64,000 bases of DNA. Source: Candidatus Pacearchaeota archaeon (GTDB lineage Archaea > Nanobdellota > Nanobdellia > Pacearchaeales > GW2011-AR1). How positions within the stretch are numbered: position 1 is the stretch's first letter; each line of letters opens with the position of its first letter. Below, piece after piece: positions 4,064-56,846 of this stretch. A model generated the notes under the pieces. The model saw only the letters and a list, made by a program, of their open reading frames with translations. It ran no database searches and was not told where the DNA came from. Both the position numbers and the translations under genes were made by a program. Location: positions 26,863-90,862 of the forward strand of contig JAAOYK010000056.1 of the NCBI GenBank assembly GCA_018221305.1, given 5' to 3'.

Positions 4064-4092
4064 AAAAACGTTACAGTGTTCACAAATTTACT

Positions 4093-4165
4093 AGCCCCTT
4101 AGTACAGTGGTCAAGTATCATCGGTTCTGGGCCGATGGACCCAGGTTCGAATCCTGGAGGGGCTA
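4093..4165 (+). tRNA. tRNA-Gln (anticodon CTG)
   Basis: Hand-folded cloverleaf: acceptor AGCCCCT/AGGGGCT, D-arm GTAC..GTAT, anticodon stem ATCGG/CCGAT with loop TTCTGGG, T-arm CAGGTTCGAATCCTG. No encoded CCA. Confidence 0.8.
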
Positions 4166-4171
4166 TCTGGT

Positions 4172-4244
4172 GCCCCGATAGTGCAGCGGCCAAGCATCCA
4201 GCCTTCTCAAGGCTGTGACCCGGGTTCGAATCCCGGTCGGGGCA
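4172..4244 (+). tRNA. tRNA-Glu (anticodon CTC)
   Basis: Acceptor GCCCCGA/TCGGGGC, anticodon stem CAGCC/GGCTG with loop TTCTCAA, T-arm CCGGGTTCGAATCCCGG. Only 6 nt after tRNA-Gln, so probably co-transcribed. Confidence 0.8.
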
Positions 4245-4364
4245 CTTTTTATCAAAGATAAAATATAGTAATAATAACAAGCCCATATGTAGAGGCTAAG
4301 AACTATTTCTTAGAGTATAGTACAAAACCTATTTATTTAAAAGATAAAAACAATTTCATCTGAA

Positions 4365-17155: not shown

Positions 17156-17282
17156 GCCGCAGTAGCTCAGTTTTGGTTAGAGCGCGTCATTGGTAATCTA
17201 AAGATCTTAATTGATTTTTATCTTTTAAGATTCATAGAATCTAAAAATGACGAGGTCCCGGGTTCGAGCCCCGGCTGTGGCT
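17156..17282 (+). tRNA. tRNA-Thr (anticodon GGT) with a ~51-nt intron at the canonical 37/38 position
   Basis: Acceptor GCCGCAG/CTGTGGC, D-arm GCTC..GAGC, anticodon stem CGTCA...TGACG. The loop TTGGTA is followed by an AT-rich insert (17196-17246) before A38. T-arm CCGGGTTCGAGCCCCGG. Confidence 0.7.
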
Positions 17283-30134: not shown

Positions 30135-30149
30135 AAAATTTGATAAATA

Positions 30150-30220
30150 TGGGCACGGGGAGAATCGAACTCCCAGCTGAAGGTCTGGAGCCCTCTGTTT
30201 TACCACTAAACTACGCACCC
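30150..30220 (-). tRNA. tRNA-Trp (anticodon CCA)
   Basis: Reverse strand: acceptor GGGTGCG/CGTGCCC, D-arm GTTT..AAAC, anticodon stem GAGGG/CCTTC with loop CTCCAGA, T-arm GGGAGTTCGATTCTCCC. Confidence 0.75.
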
Positions 30221-30251
30221 ATTTGCGTATATTATTATAGAAATATTATTT

Positions 30252-39811: not shown

Positions 39812-41200
39812 TTAAATCTTTTTTTCCATATAAATATTATTTTTGTCTAATGTGTAGCCTAGCTTTTTGTAATACTCTCGCGCGCCGATCCCTGAAATGA
39901 TTTTAAGGGAGTTTATTTTATATTTTCTGGTTATATCTTCTGCATGTGCTATTAATTGTTTGCCCAGGCCGCTGTGTTGGCCTAAAAACTTTGCTTTTTC
40001 GCCTATCTTTAATGCTTTACCATAAACATGAACCTCGCGCACGATTGCTGTTTTTGAGGTATTATTAATCCTTAGGCGACAGAGTCCAAATAAGATATTA
40101 TCTTTGTTTACAAATTCTATAAAATATTCTGTCCCATTGCTTGACTTATATTTAGATGTTTTAAGTTTTAATTTATTGTTAATAGTTTTTCCAGGTTTTA
40201 GGTCACGAATAGCAAAACCTATTTCTCTAAATCTTATTTCCTTAATTTTTGATTTCTTGATTTTTAAATGGGCCTCAATATCGCGTCTAAGATCGATTCT
40301 AGTTGTCCCAGCGATTAAAAAGTCTGGCGCGATCTCTCGCATGATACGCATTACCCTGCAATAGTTTGGGATTATTTTCATTATTTTAATAATTAGTTCT
40401 TGAATGTCATCTTTACTGTATGGATGATATTTGCCTTGATTGTACATTTTTGCAAGAGCTGCTCCTTGTAAGACTTGGGTTGGGTATATTTTTAATTGGT
40501 CTGGTTTAAAACTTTGATCTTTGAATAATTGTTTGAACATTTGCATGTCTTTTTTTGGGTTTGATTTTGGAAGGCCTAACATCATATGGTACCCAACTTT
40601 AAACCCTGCTTGTTTAAGGCGCGTGCTTGCATCTATTACATCTTTAACTTTGTGGCCCCTATTTACAAACTTGTAAATATTGTCATCTAAACACTGAACC
40701 CCTATTTCTACGCGTGTGGTGCCCCAGGAGAGCATTTTTTGTATGTCTTTGTCTGTGCACGTATCAGGGCGTGTTTCAATACATAATGCAACACATCTAT
40801 GTTTTGCTTTTTGATTAAGTTTTAGTGCATCTTTTAAGTTTTTTGAAACTTTGTTGTTTAGTGCATCATAACATTTTTTTATGAAATTGTTTTGATACTT
40901 GGTTGGATATTCCAGAAAATTTCCACCCATTATGATTAATTCGATTTTGTCAACTGGATGATTCATTAATTTGAAGGCTTTAAGCCGAGATTGTAATTGT
41001 TTAAATGCGTCATATTTTAGTATTGCTGCGCGGAGTACTGGTGGACTTTTTGGTGTGTATGATTGTGGGACATTAAGTGATGGACAATAAATACAGGTTC
41101 CGTGCTTGCATTTCTTTGGTTTGCACATGACTGCTATAGGGCTTACGCCAGCTAATGTTTTTGATGGTTTTCTTATCTCTCCTGGTTTTGGTAATTGCAT
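39812..41200 (-). CDS. elp3: Elp3-family radical SAM plus GNAT tRNA-modifying enzyme
   Basis: N-terminal CKHGTCIYCPS radical-SAM cysteine motif, C-terminal GNAT (GLGKQLIAHAEDI...KLGY). 462 aa fits archaeal Elp3. Confidence 0.8.
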   Translation of the reverse strand: MQLPKPGEIRKPSKTLAGVSPIAVMCKPKKCKHGTCIYCPSLNVPQSYTPKSPPVLRAAILKYDAFKQLQSRLKAFKLMNHPVDKIELIIMGGNFLEYPTKYQNNFIKKCYDALNNKVSKNLKDALKLNQKAKHRCVALCIETRPDTCTDKDIQKMLSWGTTRVEIGVQCLDDNIYKFVNRGHKVKDVIDASTRLKQAGFKVGYHMMLGLPKSNPKKDMQMFKQLFKDQSFKPDQLKIYPTQVLQGAALAKMYNQGKYHPYSKDDIQELIIKIMKIIPNYCRVMRIMREIAPDFLIAGTTRIDLRRDIEAHLKIKKSKIKEIRFREIGFAIRDLKPGKTINNKLKLKTSKYKSSNGTEYFIEFVNKDNILFGLCRLRINNTSKTAIVREVHVYGKALKIGEKAKFLGQHSGLGKQLIAHAEDITRKYKINSLKIISGIGAREYYKKLGYTLDKNNIYMEKKI

Positions 41201-44817: not shown

Positions 44818-44845
44818 TTTTGTACCTCTTTTTATGGGGATAATA

Positions 44846-44917
44846 AGCGAAAGGGGAGAATTGAACTCCCGTTTTACGGACCACAACCGTACGTTCTACC
44901 ATTAAACTACAATCGCC
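44846..44917 (-). tRNA. tRNA-His (anticodon GTG) with an encoded G-1
   Basis: Reverse strand: G-1 plus GCGATTG, D-arm GTTT..GAAC, anticodon stem TACGG/CCGTA with loop TTGTGGT, T-arm GGGAGTTCAATTCTCCC, 3' acceptor CTTTCGC. The acceptor stem has two U-U mismatches at 5-68 and 6-67. Confidence 0.55.
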
Positions 44918-45171: not shown

Positions 45172-45783
45172 ATGGAAAAAGGGACAAAATATTCTATTTT
45201 AGTTGGATTATTTGTGATGGCTTTAACTGTGTCTGCTTTAATTGGAGTGAAAATTATTCCTTTTTGGGGGATATTTTTTTCTGCAACAGCTATAACCTTC
45301 CCTATAACTTTTTTAGTAACAGATATAATTTCAGAAGTTTGGGGGAAAAAGAAAGCACACCAAGTTGTATGGGTTGGATTTTTTACAACCATAATTGCAT
45401 ATATCTTAGTACTTATAGCAATAAAATTACCTTTTGCTCCATTTTGGCAAGGGCAAGAAGCTTATGCTCAAACTCTTGGACTTGTAGGAAGAATTGTTTT
45501 TGCAGGATTAATAGCTTATATAATAAGTCAACATCATGATGTTTGGGCATTTCATTTTTGGAAAGTAAAAACAAGAAACAAACATCTATGGTTTAGAAAT
45601 AATGCTTCTACAGTAATGTCTCAATTAATTAATACAATTATTTTTGTACCTATTGCTTTTTATGGGATTTTACCAACCACTGCATTAATTCCAACAATCT
45701 TAGGACATTTTTTAATTAAAGTTATTTTTGCTATCGCAGATACCCCTTTTGTTTATTTAGGAGTTGCTTGGGCAAGAAGATAG
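45172..45783 (+). CDS. YhhQ/VUT-family (queuosine-precursor transporter-like) membrane protein
   Basis: ITFPITFLVTDIISEVWGKKKA matches the YhhQ signature (ITFP.TFL.TD...E.YG). 6 TM helices. Confidence 0.55.
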   Translation: MEKGTKYSILVGLFVMALTVSALIGVKIIPFWGIFFSATAITFPITFLVTDIISEVWGKKKAHQVVWVGFFTTIIAYILVLIAIKLPFAPFWQGQEAYAQTLGLVGRIVFAGLIAYIISQHHDVWAFHFWKVKTRNKHLWFRNNASTVMSQLINTIIFVPIAFYGILPTTALIPTILGHFLIKVIFAIADTPFVYLGVAWARR

Positions 45784-47541: not shown

Positions 47542-48180
47542 ATGGAATCTGGGAATCGGTATTCTGGTTCAGGGGGATCTGGAAGATCTAATCGAGGAAA
47601 TGGTAATTCTAGGTTTGGTTCTAATCGTTTTAATTCTAACCGTTCTAATAGCAATGGGTATAATGGTAATAGGTCTAACGGTAACTCTGTTAATGGTAAT
47701 CGGAAAGCTGATCGGCCCCCGAGGTCTAGGGGCTCTTCTGATACGCTTTTAAATCAGATTGTAACCTTTAGGATTGATAGTCATGTAAAATCCCGTTGGA
47801 GATTTGTGCCTTATGCTCAGGGGAAAACTTTCCCAGTACTTTTAGGGGATGTCCCTGATGAGCTTCATGTTGGGGACCAGTTTAATACAATTATTGCAAA
47901 AAGAAAACAAAGTTCTATTGAAGGAAAAACACATAAGACTCCGCACAGAACGTTTCAATTACGCGAAAATGGTTATATTGGTCATATGATTTATGATGAT
48001 TCTATGAATGTGTCAAATACTAAAACACTTGATAGAAAATATGTAAGGCAGAACTTGGTTTATCGGGTCGAAGTTGTCCAAGCCCCTAGTAGTTTTGATG
48101 TGTTTAAATTTCGGCCTCTTAGTTTTATTTCTCGCACGGATTCTCTTATTAATTGTCACTATCAGGCAAAGGATGATTAA
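47542..48180 (+). CDS. protein with an N-terminal G/S/N/R-rich low-complexity region and a C-terminal globular domain
   Basis: SGSGGSGRSNRGNGNSRFGSNRFNSNRSNSNGYNGNRSNGNSVNGNRKADRPPRSRGSS, then a 140-aa domain with no recognised motif. Confidence 0.4.
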   Translation: MESGNRYSGSGGSGRSNRGNGNSRFGSNRFNSNRSNSNGYNGNRSNGNSVNGNRKADRPPRSRGSSDTLLNQIVTFRIDSHVKSRWRFVPYAQGKTFPVLLGDVPDELHVGDQFNTIIAKRKQSSIEGKTHKTPHRTFQLRENGYIGHMIYDDSMNVSNTKTLDRKYVRQNLVYRVEVVQAPSSFDVFKFRPLSFISRTDSLINCHYQAKDD

Positions 48181-49316
48181 TTTTTATAACTTTTAATAAA
48201 ATCTTTTTTAAATTTAGAAAATGTGTTTGATTTGATATGCCCTCGTGCCTGTTGTATTATATTTGTTAAGAAGAAAAGGTTATGATATGAAGCAAGTTCT
48301 TTTCCAATGGGTTCTTGTTCACGAAGTAAAAATCTAATGTAAGCTCTTGTATAATTCTGACAAACAAAGCAATCGCATTTCTTGTCTATTGGATCTTTTG
48401 AATGTTCATATTTTTTGTTAAGAAGCTTGAGTGGGCCAATGCTAGTGAAAAGGGTTCCACGTCTTGCGTTTTGGGTCGGAAGACGAGAGTCAAACATGTC
48501 AACGCCTAAACCAATGGCTTCTAAGATTTCTATTGGAGAACCAATGCCCATTAAATAAATTGGTTTGTTTTCAGGTAAAATTGATTTCTGTAGTTTTACT
48601 ATTTTCATTTCTTCTTTCCAAGATTCGCCTAATCCAAAACCTCCGATTGAGTATCCATCAAAATTTAGTTTTGCTAAATCTTTTATTGATTGTTCTCGTA
48701 AATCTGGATGTATTCCTCCTTGAGTTATGCCAAAAAGTAATTGCTGCCTATTTTTTGGTTTTAATTTTTGTAGCTTGCTATGATGAATTTTGCATCTTTG
48801 TGCCCAAAGTGTTGTAAGTCTTACTGCTTCTTTTATTGAAGTTTTACTTTCTTCATACATTGGCATAGAATCCAGACACATTGCGATGTCACTATTTATT
48901 GCTAATTGTATTTCCATGTTTTTTTCAGGGGTCATAAAAATCTTGTCACCATTTTTTGGATTTTTAAAATGAACTCCAATGTCATTTGATTTTAGATATA
49001 TAGATTCACTGTACATTTGAAAACCTCCAGAATCTGTCACATTTATTCCATGAAAGTTCATAAATTTTCTAATTCCACCAAGTTTTTTTATTAATTTTTC
49101 TCCTGGGTTTAAATGAAGAATTAATGCATTGGAAATTATTACATTTGCTCCTATTTCTTTTAGCTGGGGGGTGTTAATGAATTTTGCTGCAGCTTTGGTT
49201 GCTACTGGCATAAAAAACGGTGTTTTGACTGTTCCAGACTTTGTGTGAAGCAGGCCTGTTCTTGCTTTTGTTTTTGAATCAGTGTGTGTTATTTGAAATA
49301 CTTTTTGACTTTCCAT
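48177..49316 (-). CDS. tgt: tRNA-guanine transglycosylase catalytic core (archaeosine-type in an archaeon), no PUA domain
   Basis: ARTGLLHTKSGTVKTPFFMPVAT, TDSGGFQ and the zinc site CDCFVCQNYTRAYIRFL. 379 aa. Confidence 0.8.
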   Translation of the reverse strand: MESQKVFQITHTDSKTKARTGLLHTKSGTVKTPFFMPVATKAAAKFINTPQLKEIGANVIISNALILHLNPGEKLIKKLGGIRKFMNFHGINVTDSGGFQMYSESIYLKSNDIGVHFKNPKNGDKIFMTPEKNMEIQLAINSDIAMCLDSMPMYEESKTSIKEAVRLTTLWAQRCKIHHSKLQKLKPKNRQQLLFGITQGGIHPDLREQSIKDLAKLNFDGYSIGGFGLGESWKEEMKIVKLQKSILPENKPIYLMGIGSPIEILEAIGLGVDMFDSRLPTQNARRGTLFTSIGPLKLLNKKYEHSKDPIDKKCDCFVCQNYTRAYIRFLLREQEPIGKELASYHNLFFLTNIIQQARGHIKSNTFSKFKKDFIKSYKN

Positions 49317-49573: not shown

Positions 49574-49745
49574 ATTAGAACTGCAAGGAAGAATAGAAGA
49601 TGCACGTGAATTTTTTGAGCGTTTGGAGCATTTGAAGGGTCGAAATGCGGCTGTTGAAGATGTTAAGAGGATCTGTGTTGCACATCTTTTAATTAAGACC
49701 AAATCTCAAATTAATACTCAAAATTCTGTATTACGTAAACATTAA
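49563..49745 (+). CDS. small hypothetical protein overlapping the RHH gene stop (ATGA)
   Basis: 60 aa with translational coupling to the upstream RHH gene. Confidence 0.3.
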   Translation: MKNRLELQGRIEDAREFFERLEHLKGRNAAVEDVKRICVAHLLIKTKSQINTQNSVLRKH

Positions 49746-49773
49746 TTATATCGCTAAGAGCGATATAAATATA

Positions 49774-49894
49774 TGAGCCTACCAGGATTTGAACCTGGGA
49801 CCCCTGCCTTTCTTAGCAGATGCTTAGAAAATACATTTCTAGTGAAACATACTCTTATAAGAGCAGTGCTCTGACCTGACTGAGCTATAGGCTC
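49774..49894 (-). tRNA. tRNA-Ile (anticodon TAT) with a ~46-nt intron, assuming the canonical 37/38 intron position
   Basis: Reverse strand: acceptor GAGCCTA/TAGGCTC, D-arm GCTC..GAGC, anticodon stem CTGCT...GGCAG, loop 5' part CTTATA followed by an AT-rich insert, T-arm CCAGGTTCAAATCCTGG. Confidence 0.55.
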
Positions 49895-49921
49895 ATATTT
49901 ATATTATTGCAATATTAGCAG

Positions 49922-49930
49922 CATTTTTAA
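49922..49930 (-). promoter_or_regulatory. TATA-like tttaaaaatg about 30-38 nt upstream of tRNA-Ile
   Basis: Followed by caataatataaatat immediately upstream of the tRNA. Confidence 0.3.
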
Positions 49931-50004
49931 ACCTTATTAAATGAACAAAAATCAAAATCTTTATAAACTGCGAAGTATATATTCAAATGTAAAAAGAGGA
50001 AAAA

Positions 50005-51550: not shown

Positions 51551-51581
51551 GAGTATTAGTTTCTTTTAAACAAACTAATCT

Positions 51582-51654
51582 GCCCCTGTAGTGCAGCGGC
51601 CAAGCATCCGGCCCTTTCGAGGCCGTGACCCGGGTTCGAATCCCGGCAGGGGCA
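51582..51654 (+). tRNA. tRNA-Glu (anticodon TTC); putative integration target (attL)
   Basis: Acceptor GCCCCTG/CAGGGGC, anticodon stem CGGCC/GGCCG with loop CTTTCGA, T-arm CCGGGTTCGAATCCCGG. Its 3' end cggcaggggcat is repeated at 59397-59408. Confidence 0.8.
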
Positions 51655-51731
51655 TGTCTATATTATGATTAAAAAGTGGGACTCGGAATTTGTATAGAAA
51701 ATACTAAAAAGTACTAATTCTCTAATAAGCT

Positions 51732-55676: not shown

Positions 55677-56846
55677 CTACTCCTTCACCATCCTTTCCAT
55701 TTTTAATACATACATACCAATAGTTTTCATTTGGCTTTTTAGGATATCTATTTCATTTTGCATAGAACTAACTTCTTCTTTTAAAATATCATTTTTATTT
55801 TCAGCCTTTACTAATCTCTTCTCAATCTCTGTTTTTGTTAAATCCATTAACATATCTTCCTCACTTATTGTATCACGCATCCCTAACATTTCGCTGTAAT
55901 AATGGATTTTATCTGATTTTTTCCAGCCAAATCTAAATTTTAGGGCAGATTCGGATTTATATCTTAATAACCAATAACAGCAACTGCAGTGCCTAAAATC
56001 ATACATTGTTAAATCTGAATATTTCTGTCCTGCAGGACTTTTCTCATCCCCTAAGATTCTTTTCCCTAATCTCTTCAGATAATTATTAACACTATAAGGA
56101 TTAATAGGAAATAGTTGATCATTTGGTTTTAAGTCCTTAACTTTAACATATTTTTTAATTAAATCAGAGCATAGCATTAACTTAATTTTCCTTCCAAAAG
56201 TTTTAGAAATTTCTTCTTTAATGTTCAATTCTTTAAAATCGTTTGATAGGTCTGAAACTCTTAAATTAACTAATTCGGTAGGACTTCTAATTCCTGTATC
56301 AAATAAAAACATAATTAAAATACTATATTCATATTTTGCTTCATCGCATAATTGCTTAATTTGTTCTTCTGTTAAATAAACCCATTCGGGTTTATCTCCC
56401 GTTGTATCTAAATATTGAGTTATGTCTGGAAGAGTTTGTCCTTCTTTATTCTTAATTTTTTGATACCAGTGCCAAAAAGCTTTATAGATTTTAGCATAAT
56501 CTCTAATGCTCTTGTATCTTTCACCATCCTGCCTTTTAACCTCTCCATTTCTCATGGCAGTAAAAAAAGAACATAGCTCATTTTCGCTTATTTCTGTTAA
56601 ATTTTTATTAAATTTAGTTTTAAAGTGCTTTGCTAAGAAAACCATACGATTTCTTAACGTGTTAAGCCGTGTGTAGCTTCTTGCCCCTTTTTTGTTAGAC
56701 ATAGAGATGTTTATGCCAAGTTCCATATCTTTTAGATATTGAAGAATTATCTCTGAATTTTCTTTAGACAAATCAGGGATTTGTCCCTGTATTAATTTTT
56801 TCCATCTCAAATACTTTTCTTTATTCTTATATGGATCGATCTTCAT
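55677..56846 (-). CDS. tyrosine recombinase / integrase
   Basis: Box I FLFDTGIRSPTELVNLRVSDL (catalytic Arg), box II YDFRHCSCCYWLL (R-H), then KIHYYSEMLG (candidate nucleophilic Tyr). N-terminal SAM-like core-binding region. Sits inside the tRNA-bounded element. Confidence 0.7.
   Translation of the reverse strand: MKIDPYKNKEKYLRWKKLIQGQIPDLSKENSEIILQYLKDMELGINISMSNKKGARSYTRLNTLRNRMVFLAKHFKTKFNKNLTEISENELCSFFTAMRNGEVKRQDGERYKSIRDYAKIYKAFWHWYQKIKNKEGQTLPDITQYLDTTGDKPEWVYLTEEQIKQLCDEAKYEYSILIMFLFDTGIRSPTELVNLRVSDLSNDFKELNIKEEISKTFGRKIKLMLCSDLIKKYVKVKDLKPNDQLFPINPYSVNNYLKRLGKRILGDEKSPAGQKYSDLTMYDFRHCSCCYWLLRYKSESALKFRFGWKKSDKIHYYSEMLGMRDTISEEDMLMDLTKTEIEKRLVKAENKNDILKEEVSSMQNEIDILKSQMKTIGMYVLKMERMVKE

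Follow-up and report, generated by a model that had tools for sequence, protein, structure and literature searches.

An intron-containing tRNA-Ile(UAU) gene as the probable AUA decoder of a Woesearchaeota/Pacearchaeota-group DPANN archaeon

How does an archaeon read AUA as isoleucine without also reading AUG? The archaeal tRNA-Ile2 that does this with agmatidine carries a CAU anticodon, is TiaS-dependent and is usually intronless, whereas the interrupted tRNA gene described here, on an archaeal stretch of 64,000 nucleotides (the window), encodes U34 and would do the same job. Few precedents have been published. Among 167 archaeal genomes surveyed, UAU turned up only in N. equitans and in K. 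cryptofilum, whose gene has an intron (PMC6000648), and in both it replaces CAU and agmatidine (PMC6000648, PMC3895270, PMC3575796); ARMAN-2, -4 and -5 likewise have a tRNA-Ile(UAU) and lack tRNA-Ile(CAU) and TiaS (PMC3239211, PMC12397907). We asked what the mature anticodon of the window gene is, whether the gene appears functional, and whether it would take the place of the agmatidine system. Judged from sequence, we put the probability at about 0.9 that it is a functional chromosomal tRNA-Ile(UAU), a minor AUA decoder with a genomic UAU, of a Woesearchaeota/Pacearchaeota-group DPANN archaeon.

The gene occupies the minus strand at 49774-49894 and is 121 nt long as pre-tRNA. Rfam model RF00005 matched this interval with 57.9 bits (E=6.7e-10), above its curated gathering score of 29, over model positions 1-71, which is the full model, and the alignment contained a 47-nt insertion within the anticodon loop. 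ARAGORN run on the window without intron search did not call the gene; ARAGORN -i reported tRNA-Ile(tat) at 49774-49894, with a 46-nt intron and the junction ttata/intron/aggca. Read from the sequence, the 5' part of the precursor is GAGCCUA-UA-GCUC-AGUCAGGUCA-GAGC-A-CUGCU-CUUAUA, followed by the intron AGAGUAUGUUUCACUAGAAAUGUAUUUUCUAAGCAUCUGCUAAGAA and then by A-GGCAG-GGGUC-CCAGG-UUCAAAU-CCUGG-UAGGCUC-A. The complete precursor, on which Rfam, ARAGORN -i and an alignment of orthologues agree, thus comprises a 39-nt 5' exon ending in CUUAUA (tRNA positions 1-37; 49856-49894), the intron at 49810-49855 and a 36-nt 3' exon (positions 38-73; 49774-49809), all on the minus strand. The anticodon UAU (positions 34-36) lies at 49857-49859 and the discriminator A73 at 49774, and CCA is not encoded at the 3' end of the gene. 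The spliced product, 75 nt long and with the 7-nt loop CUUAUAA, folds into a clean cloverleaf at -28.3 kcal/mol, and chance is excluded by the E-value, a fold z-score of -3.4 and covariation among orthologues. A73, A37, A38, C4-G69 and U12-A23, isoleucine identity elements in E. coli, are present. Position 34 is T in the gene, so that the C34 required by TiaS in the CAU class is lacking.

The intron, which runs from AGAGUAUG to CUAAGAA and was delimited by ARAGORN -i, a bulge-helix-bulge (BHB) scan and intronless orthologues, sits at the canonical position 37/38. For the scan, the 121-nt precursor was searched with a purpose-written program for an outer helix, a 4-bp helix and two 3-nt bulges on opposite strands, with cleavage set after the second bulge base. 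In the canonical register the outer helix is the 5-bp anticodon stem, C32-U33-U34-A35 (49858-49861) forms 4/4 Watson-Crick pairs with intron positions -6 to -3, UAAG (49812-49815), and the bulges, 3 nt each, are U36-A37-A, the last being intron nt 1 (49855-49857), and A-A-A38 (49809-49811). Since intron nt 1 is A and so is nt 38, the boundary (A/A) can slide by 1 nt in either direction with the product unchanged. A neighbouring register with a 48-nt intron would leave a 5-nt loop and is not viable, and all remaining BHB motifs in the precursor destroy the tRNA, so that only the canonical register yields a normal one. In the inner helix h', G-C is the one strict pair and A.G comes next, which makes the motif a relaxed hBHBh', and an additional intron hairpin, AUGUUUC-ACUA-GAAAUGU (49833-49850), was recovered by RNAalifold and shows compensatory changes in orthologues. 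The BHB was obtained by constrained folding and by the scan and is absent from the unconstrained minimum free energy fold, which reaches -41.3 kcal/mol versus -36.6 kcal/mol with cloverleaf and BHB imposed; a competing hairpin formed by the CUCUUAUAAGAG palindrome accounts for a preference of 4.7 kcal/mol. Box C/D motifs were not seen in the intron by eye, and a relaxed-threshold Rfam search returned nothing besides the tRNA.

These data bear directly on the reading that the intron lies elsewhere and splicing yields an anticodon other than UAU, such as UGA for serine. ARAGORN, which is blind to BHB geometry, does produce such calls: 22 orthologues (L032, L009, L011 and 19 others) were labelled tRNA-Ser(tga) after the program had displaced the intron by a few bases, and a few others came out as Ala, Thr and so on. 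For the window gene, however, the same program gives Ile(tat), only the canonical BHB register results in a 7-nt loop, and the UAAG partner is kept in 36/36 aligned orthologues. The junction is fixed by intronless orthologues in syntenic contigs, which read the exact spliced sequence CTGCT CTTATAA GGCAG directly. The reading with another anticodon is thereby effectively refuted and we consider it highly improbable; the tRNA-Ser(tga) calls are an artefact of the shifted intron and a systematic annotation hazard for such genomes. The earlier note on this DNA, made from the letters alone, had placed an intron-containing tRNA-Ile with a TAT anticodon and a canonical 37/38 intron at 49774-49894. 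Its coordinates proved exact, with Rfam and ARAGORN -i assigning the minus strand; the anticodon was upheld by ARAGORN -i, the BHB register and the CTTATAA loop of intronless orthologues (L167, L181 and L121), and the intron position by BHB geometry and the same intronless genes. The BHB-aware scan neither moved the intron nor changed the anticodon.

We then compared the gene with its closest 36 relatives carrying 45-48-nt introns among the matches listed (alignment A1). Pairing reaches 99-100% in the four cloverleaf helices, where double changes are numerous, and 97.2% in the central helix of the BHB. In the inner helix, the first pair (G-C) is kept in 36/36 sequences and the second is non-standard in 10/36, namely A.G in the window gene and in nine others. 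All 7/7 pairs of the intron hairpin show compensatory changes and the helix is 96.8% paired (RNAalifold). Over the whole structure, 95.7% of cells are paired compared with 84% in shuffled alignments, 19 pairs show double changes, and the covariation score of 0.371 (0.139 in shuffles) was reached by 0/500 shuffles; slid controls were 30-43% paired. Because of this conservation and covariation, we interpret the intron as an inherited, structured intron of the Woese/Pacearchaeota clade.

To see how far the architecture extends, a degenerate pattern for intron-containing tRNA(UAU) genes was run against one genome per GTDB species, which gave at least 120 loci. At least 97 of these share the architecture of the window gene, defined by an anticodon stem of 5/5 pairs, an acceptor stem of 7/7, a central helix of at least 3/4 pairs and A73, and nearly all carry DPANN labels: 36 Woesearchaeota, 11 Pacearchaeota, 13 Nanoarchaeota/Nanobdellati, 14 Micrarchaeota/Anstonellales, two each of Iainarchaeum, Aenigmarchaeota and Undinarchaeota, and one Altiarchaeota, the rest being 10 unclassified archaea and 6 doubtful cases. 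The at least 97 species-level genomes with the gene thus span at least 8 DPANN phylum-level labels. Among the matches listed, the nearest is in a Pacearchaeota MAG (L032), with 94.7% identity over the spliced tRNA; the intron has homologues of 45-48 nt in Woese/Pacearchaeota orthologues, with at most 79% identity among the matches listed, and proteins neighbouring the window gene are about 50-59% identical to those at orthologous genome loci. The claim in the earlier note that a genomic UAU is known from only a few small-genome archaeal lineages therefore stands for the published record (ARMAN, Nanoarchaeum, Korarchaeum) but understates the actual spread, which reaches at least 97 genomes. Among the loci retrieved, six with a DPANN-type intron-containing tRNA-Ile(UAU) carry other labels, namely L016 (Omnitrophota), L087, L092 and L115 (Methanosarcinales), and L019 and L112 (Methanobacteriota). 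In L016 an archaeal-looking tRNA follows directly after tRNA-Ile(UAU), and L087 contains a homologue of the window's orf128; for all six, an error of binning or labelling is probable. Were Methanosarcinales the right label, UAU would occur in a lineage that bears TiaS. The retrieved archaeal loci contained no tRNA-Ile(GAU) or tRNA-Met for a comparison of tRNA bodies.

A search of metagenome contigs with a pattern specific to the clade, in which the intron could be 0-30 nt long, gave 84 loci. Intronless genes account for 27 of these; they are 79-95% (most 87-95%) identical to the window's spliced tRNA, adjoin homologues of window genes and carry the CTTATAA loop uninterrupted between the halves of the anticodon stem. 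Another 8 have shorter introns, and 49 represent a different tRNA(UAU), probably bacterial. The intronless contigs include close relatives: L167 shares 82% nucleotide identity with the window over 683 nt around tRNA-Glu(UUC) and has a neighbouring ORF with 89% amino acid identity, L181 is syntenic with the window over 39.8-51.7 kb, and L121 carries an ORF 64% identical to window ORF 55677-56846. The intron is thus missing from the nearest known relatives and shared with the window by more distant ones, which leads us to conclude that the intron is ancestral and was lost repeatedly. Intronless alleles at the same locus further imply that the intron is not required for a functional tRNA.

This pattern also separates the gene from its eukaryotic counterpart, which resembles it in anticodon and in having a 37/38 intron that pairs with the anticodon (PMC3895270, PMC9602550). 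In eukaryotic tRNA-Ile(UAU), AUA is decoded by a U-derived wobble base, with pseudouridine at positions 34 and 36 (PMC3895270, PMC9602550), and this pseudouridylation can be intron-dependent. An obligatory intron-dependent step is unlikely for the window tRNA because its close relatives lack the intron, and an obligatory, eukaryote-like intron-dependent modification of U34/U36 was rejected as an explanation on account of the 27 intronless orthologues. The two also differ in setting, the window gene having an archaeal context and a BHB motif in place of a eukaryotic nuclear context.

Could the sequence nonetheless be eukaryotic, or bacterial? All eukaryotic tRNA-Ile(UAU) genes are intron-bearing, at 37/38 (PMC9602550, PMC3895270), which would fit a eukaryotic origin. 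The window, however, is about 77% coding with short intergenic spacers, its markers and neighbours are archaeal, the orthologues of the gene come from DPANN MAGs, and the intron is bounded by a BHB with two 3-nt bulges. The window encodes archaeal-type PheRS alpha and beta subunits (B5/B1 domains), GluRS, HisRS, PGK, Rpo7 (SHS2_Rpb7-N plus S1), ribosomal protein S24e, an Elp3-like radical-SAM/GNAT protein and TGT; a match to RNase P p30 was weak and below cutoff. On the strength of Rpo7, S24e, PheRS, Elp3, the DPANN orthologues and the syntenic neighbours the window is archaeal, and a eukaryotic or bacterial origin, refuted by this genomic context, has a negligible probability.

The window contains a second intron-containing tRNA gene, tRNA-Thr(GGU) at 17156-17282 on the plus strand, with a 51-nt intron at 37/38 (ARAGORN -i; Rfam 48.8 bits), which default tRNA finding also missed; by eye, its U32-U33-G34-G35 pairs with the 3' end of the intron (A, A, U, C) and the bulges are of AAA type. 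We also noted that window tRNAs vary widely in base composition for a genome of 31.6% G+C (4092-4245 and 51581-51655 versus 30149-30221 and 44845-44917), with 68% G+C in Glu(UUC), 66% in Glu(CUC), 60% in Thr and 47% in His(GUG), and that ARAGORN draws tRNA-His(GUG) with two U.U mismatches in its acceptor stem.

Is the gene in working order at its locus? A candidate archaeal TATA box, TTTAAAAA, lies at 49924-49931 on the minus strand, 30-37 nt upstream of the mature 5' end, and many orthologues carry a BRE/TATA-like (A)AACCTTTAAATA at about the same distance (30-37 nt; L008, L011, L018, L025, L033, L048, L067, L080, L084 and others); such a box is a weak signal in AT-rich DNA, and we regard its assignment to tRNA-Ile(UAU) as tentative. 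On the 3' side, right behind the tRNA, a T-rich trailer contains an inverted repeat at 49743-49771 (minus strand) with 13-nt arms of 92% complementarity, found by repeat search. In many orthologues the discriminator base is directly followed by a hairpin, unrelated in sequence, and the window hairpin is possibly a terminator or a processing element.

The surrounding gene order is kept in relatives, with orf128, tRNA-Glu(UUC) and a homologue of ORF108 in the neighbourhood, and relatives' tRNA-Ile(UAU) genes are co-oriented with orf128 and tRNA-Glu(UUC). The window gene is inverted in place relative to these conserved neighbours (compared with L121, L167, L181 and L002), and a perfect 10-nt inverted repeat flanks it at 49763-49772 and 49895-49904 (ATATAAATAT and ATATTTATAT), which also extends the acceptor helix. 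This repeat could reflect a small inversion or could be chance in AT-rich DNA. Together with the weak inner BHB helix, the inversion and the repeat are what would speak for a decaying or non-functional copy, or for cargo of a mobile element or virus. Against this, all four cloverleaf stems are intact, the gene is 92-95% identical to orthologues that are under clear purifying selection with compensatory changes, the neighbourhood is conserved, and it is the only AUA decoder seen in the window, for a codon used 30 times per 1000. We consider decay or cargo very unlikely.

The demand for such a decoder is evident from codon usage. The AT-rich, AUA-heavy coding remarked on in the earlier note is borne out by the 31.6% G+C content of the window and by AUA at 30.0 per 1000 codons, or 32.6% of isoleucine codons, which makes it commoner than AUG (23.4) or AUC (13.3). 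Comparison with bacterial PGK homologues of about 25% identity was uninformative, and codon substitution was assessed from 42 alignments with archaeal relatives. Window AUA aligns with isoleucine codons in 48% of cases and with AUG in 3.3%, much as AUU does (51% and 2.5%), whereas AUG aligns with AUG in 55.5%. AUA thus substitutes like AUU and AUC and unlike AUG, which lends indirect support to its being read as isoleucine.

Putting these elements together, we propose that minus-strand transcription of the gene is probably driven by the TATA box about 33 nt upstream. In the precursor, as sequence and conservation show, C32-A35 pairs with UAAG to form the 4-bp BHB central helix flanked by the two 3-nt bulges. 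By the established archaeal pathway, the splicing endonuclease (EndA) would cut both bulges and an RtcB-type ligase would join the exons. CCA, absent from the gene, would be added post-transcriptionally, and the mature tRNA would receive t6A37, likewise by an established archaeal pathway. With its loop CUUAUAA, A37 and A73, the 75-nt product would be charged by IleRS and would read the AUA codons, and by precedent it would replace tRNA-Ile2(CAU), TiaS and agmatidine together.

The last step has an alternative, in which tRNA-Ile(UAU) coexists with TiaS and tRNA-Ile2(CAU) as an extra AUA decoder. The conclusion of the earlier note that TiaS is absent, for which precedent is the ground, would then be wrong. 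AUA is frequent enough that two decoders would not be absurd, and our view of the genome spans 64 kb. In the published cases, however, ARMAN-2, -4 and -5, N. equitans and K. cryptofilum all pair UAU with loss of TiaS and CAU (PMC3239211, PMC3575796, PMC3895270). Within the 64-kb window, none of about 70 scanned ORFs of at least 100 aa contains a TiaS-like domain and none of the 7 tRNAs has a CAU anticodon. We therefore rate coexistence as unlikely and favour replacement of the agmatidine system by tRNA-Ile(UAU).

Among known systems, the closest counterpart is ARMAN-2 (Candidatus Micrarchaeum), also a DPANN archaeon, whose tRNA-Ile(UAU) gene is interrupted at 37/38 by an intron of 25 nt; the archaeal endonuclease cleaves the precursor in vitro (PMC3239211, PMC12397907). 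The two genes share the anticodon and the canonical intron in a BHB; they differ in lineage, the window gene belonging to the Woese/Pacearchaeota group, and in that the ARMAN-2 intron forms a strict hBHBh' at 25 nt whereas that of the window is 46 nt long, with an extra covarying hairpin and a relaxed inner helix. Genes of this kind from Micrarchaeota were among the genome-scan matches listed. Korarchaeum cryptofilum and Nanoarchaeum equitans also encode UAU, the former with an intron as well, but belong to other phyla, and in K. cryptofilum the gene seems to have arisen recently from that organism's own tRNA-Ile(GAU), in contrast to the window gene, an old orthologue common to many DPANN archaea. 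In Mycoplasma mobile, a prokaryote that has lost its C34-modifying enzyme and reads AUA with a tRNA-Ile2(UAU), the tRNA is bacterial, intronless and unmodified at U34, and it is an adapted IleRS (Arg865), together with the ribosome, that provides specificity; this case shows that such a strategy can work (PMC3575796). An intron-containing tRNA-Ile(UAU) has thus already been described in ARMAN and Korarchaeum, and the arrangement is common in DPANN archaea.

What keeps such a tRNA off AUG is the question that M. mobile answers for one bacterium. In haloarchaea, an engineered UAU tRNA-Ile acquires cnm5U34 and binds and misreads AUG, and IleRS uses it poorly as a substrate (PMC3895270). Because of this misreading, the DPANN archaea with this gene must compensate in some way, whether through U34 modification, IleRS or the ribosome. 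The window offers one candidate: an Elp3-like protein at 39812-41200 (minus strand), with Radical_SAM and Radical_SAM_C domains, a weak below-cutoff GNAT match and 69% amino acid identity to its counterpart in syntenic L181, is a candidate wobble-uridine modifier and one possible route to U34 specificity. A TGT of 379 aa consisting of the catalytic domain only is encoded at 48177-49316, just downstream of tRNA-Ile on the same strand (minus), and 2.4 kb from it, at 45172-45783 on the plus strand, is a transporter of the Vut_1/YhhQ family, the family of preQ0/queuosine-precursor transporters. The pair is consistent with salvage of 7-deazaguanine precursors for tRNA modification in a reduced genome.

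As a separate observation, the searches also returned bacterial tRNA(UAU) genes with an extra arm of about 20 nt in the variable region, in Actinomyces (L001, L015, L017, L029, L041, L056), in Pyrinomonadaceae/Acidobacteriota (L004, L024, L039, L071, L081, L093, L094, L096, L100, L111) and in L023, L066 and L106. The 7-nt loop of this arm often contains GAU (CUGAUAA in Actinomyces, CAGAUCA in Pyrinomonadaceae), so that it resembles a second anticodon arm like that of tRNA-Ile(GAU). One of these genes lies in an Acidobacteriota array of 34 tRNA genes in 6.5 kb (L004, 1-8000). A relationship to the published long-variable-arm allo-tRNAs, among which UAU is a common anticodon (PMC7609411), is possible.

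For the organism, a tRNA-Ile(UAU) is what one would expect in a DPANN genome, and the chief value of the present gene is a correct annotation of something that intron-blind tRNA finders miss. For the wider group, the UAU solution to the AUA/AUG problem occurs in at least 97 species-level genomes, nearly all of them DPANN, well beyond the three textbook exceptions, and we found no open-access paper tying DPANN at large to agmatidine loss. Read from tRNA genes alone, a large slice of archaeal diversity may do without agmatidine. The stronger generalization, that a vertically inherited tRNA-Ile(UAU) rather than agmatidine is the rule across much of DPANN and that its 45-48-nt hairpin intron is kept for something beyond its own removal, is speculative and in our judgement unlikely to hold as a whole; the intron may aid anticodon-loop modification or give rise to a stable excised RNA, and its patchy occurrence at the same locus among close relatives speaks against a eukaryote-like modification that is essential and depends on the intron. 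Comparative genomics can now be used to look for the feature that compensates against AUG misreading; if the generalization were true, DPANN lineages would be natural systems for learning how an archaeal U34 tRNA avoids AUG.
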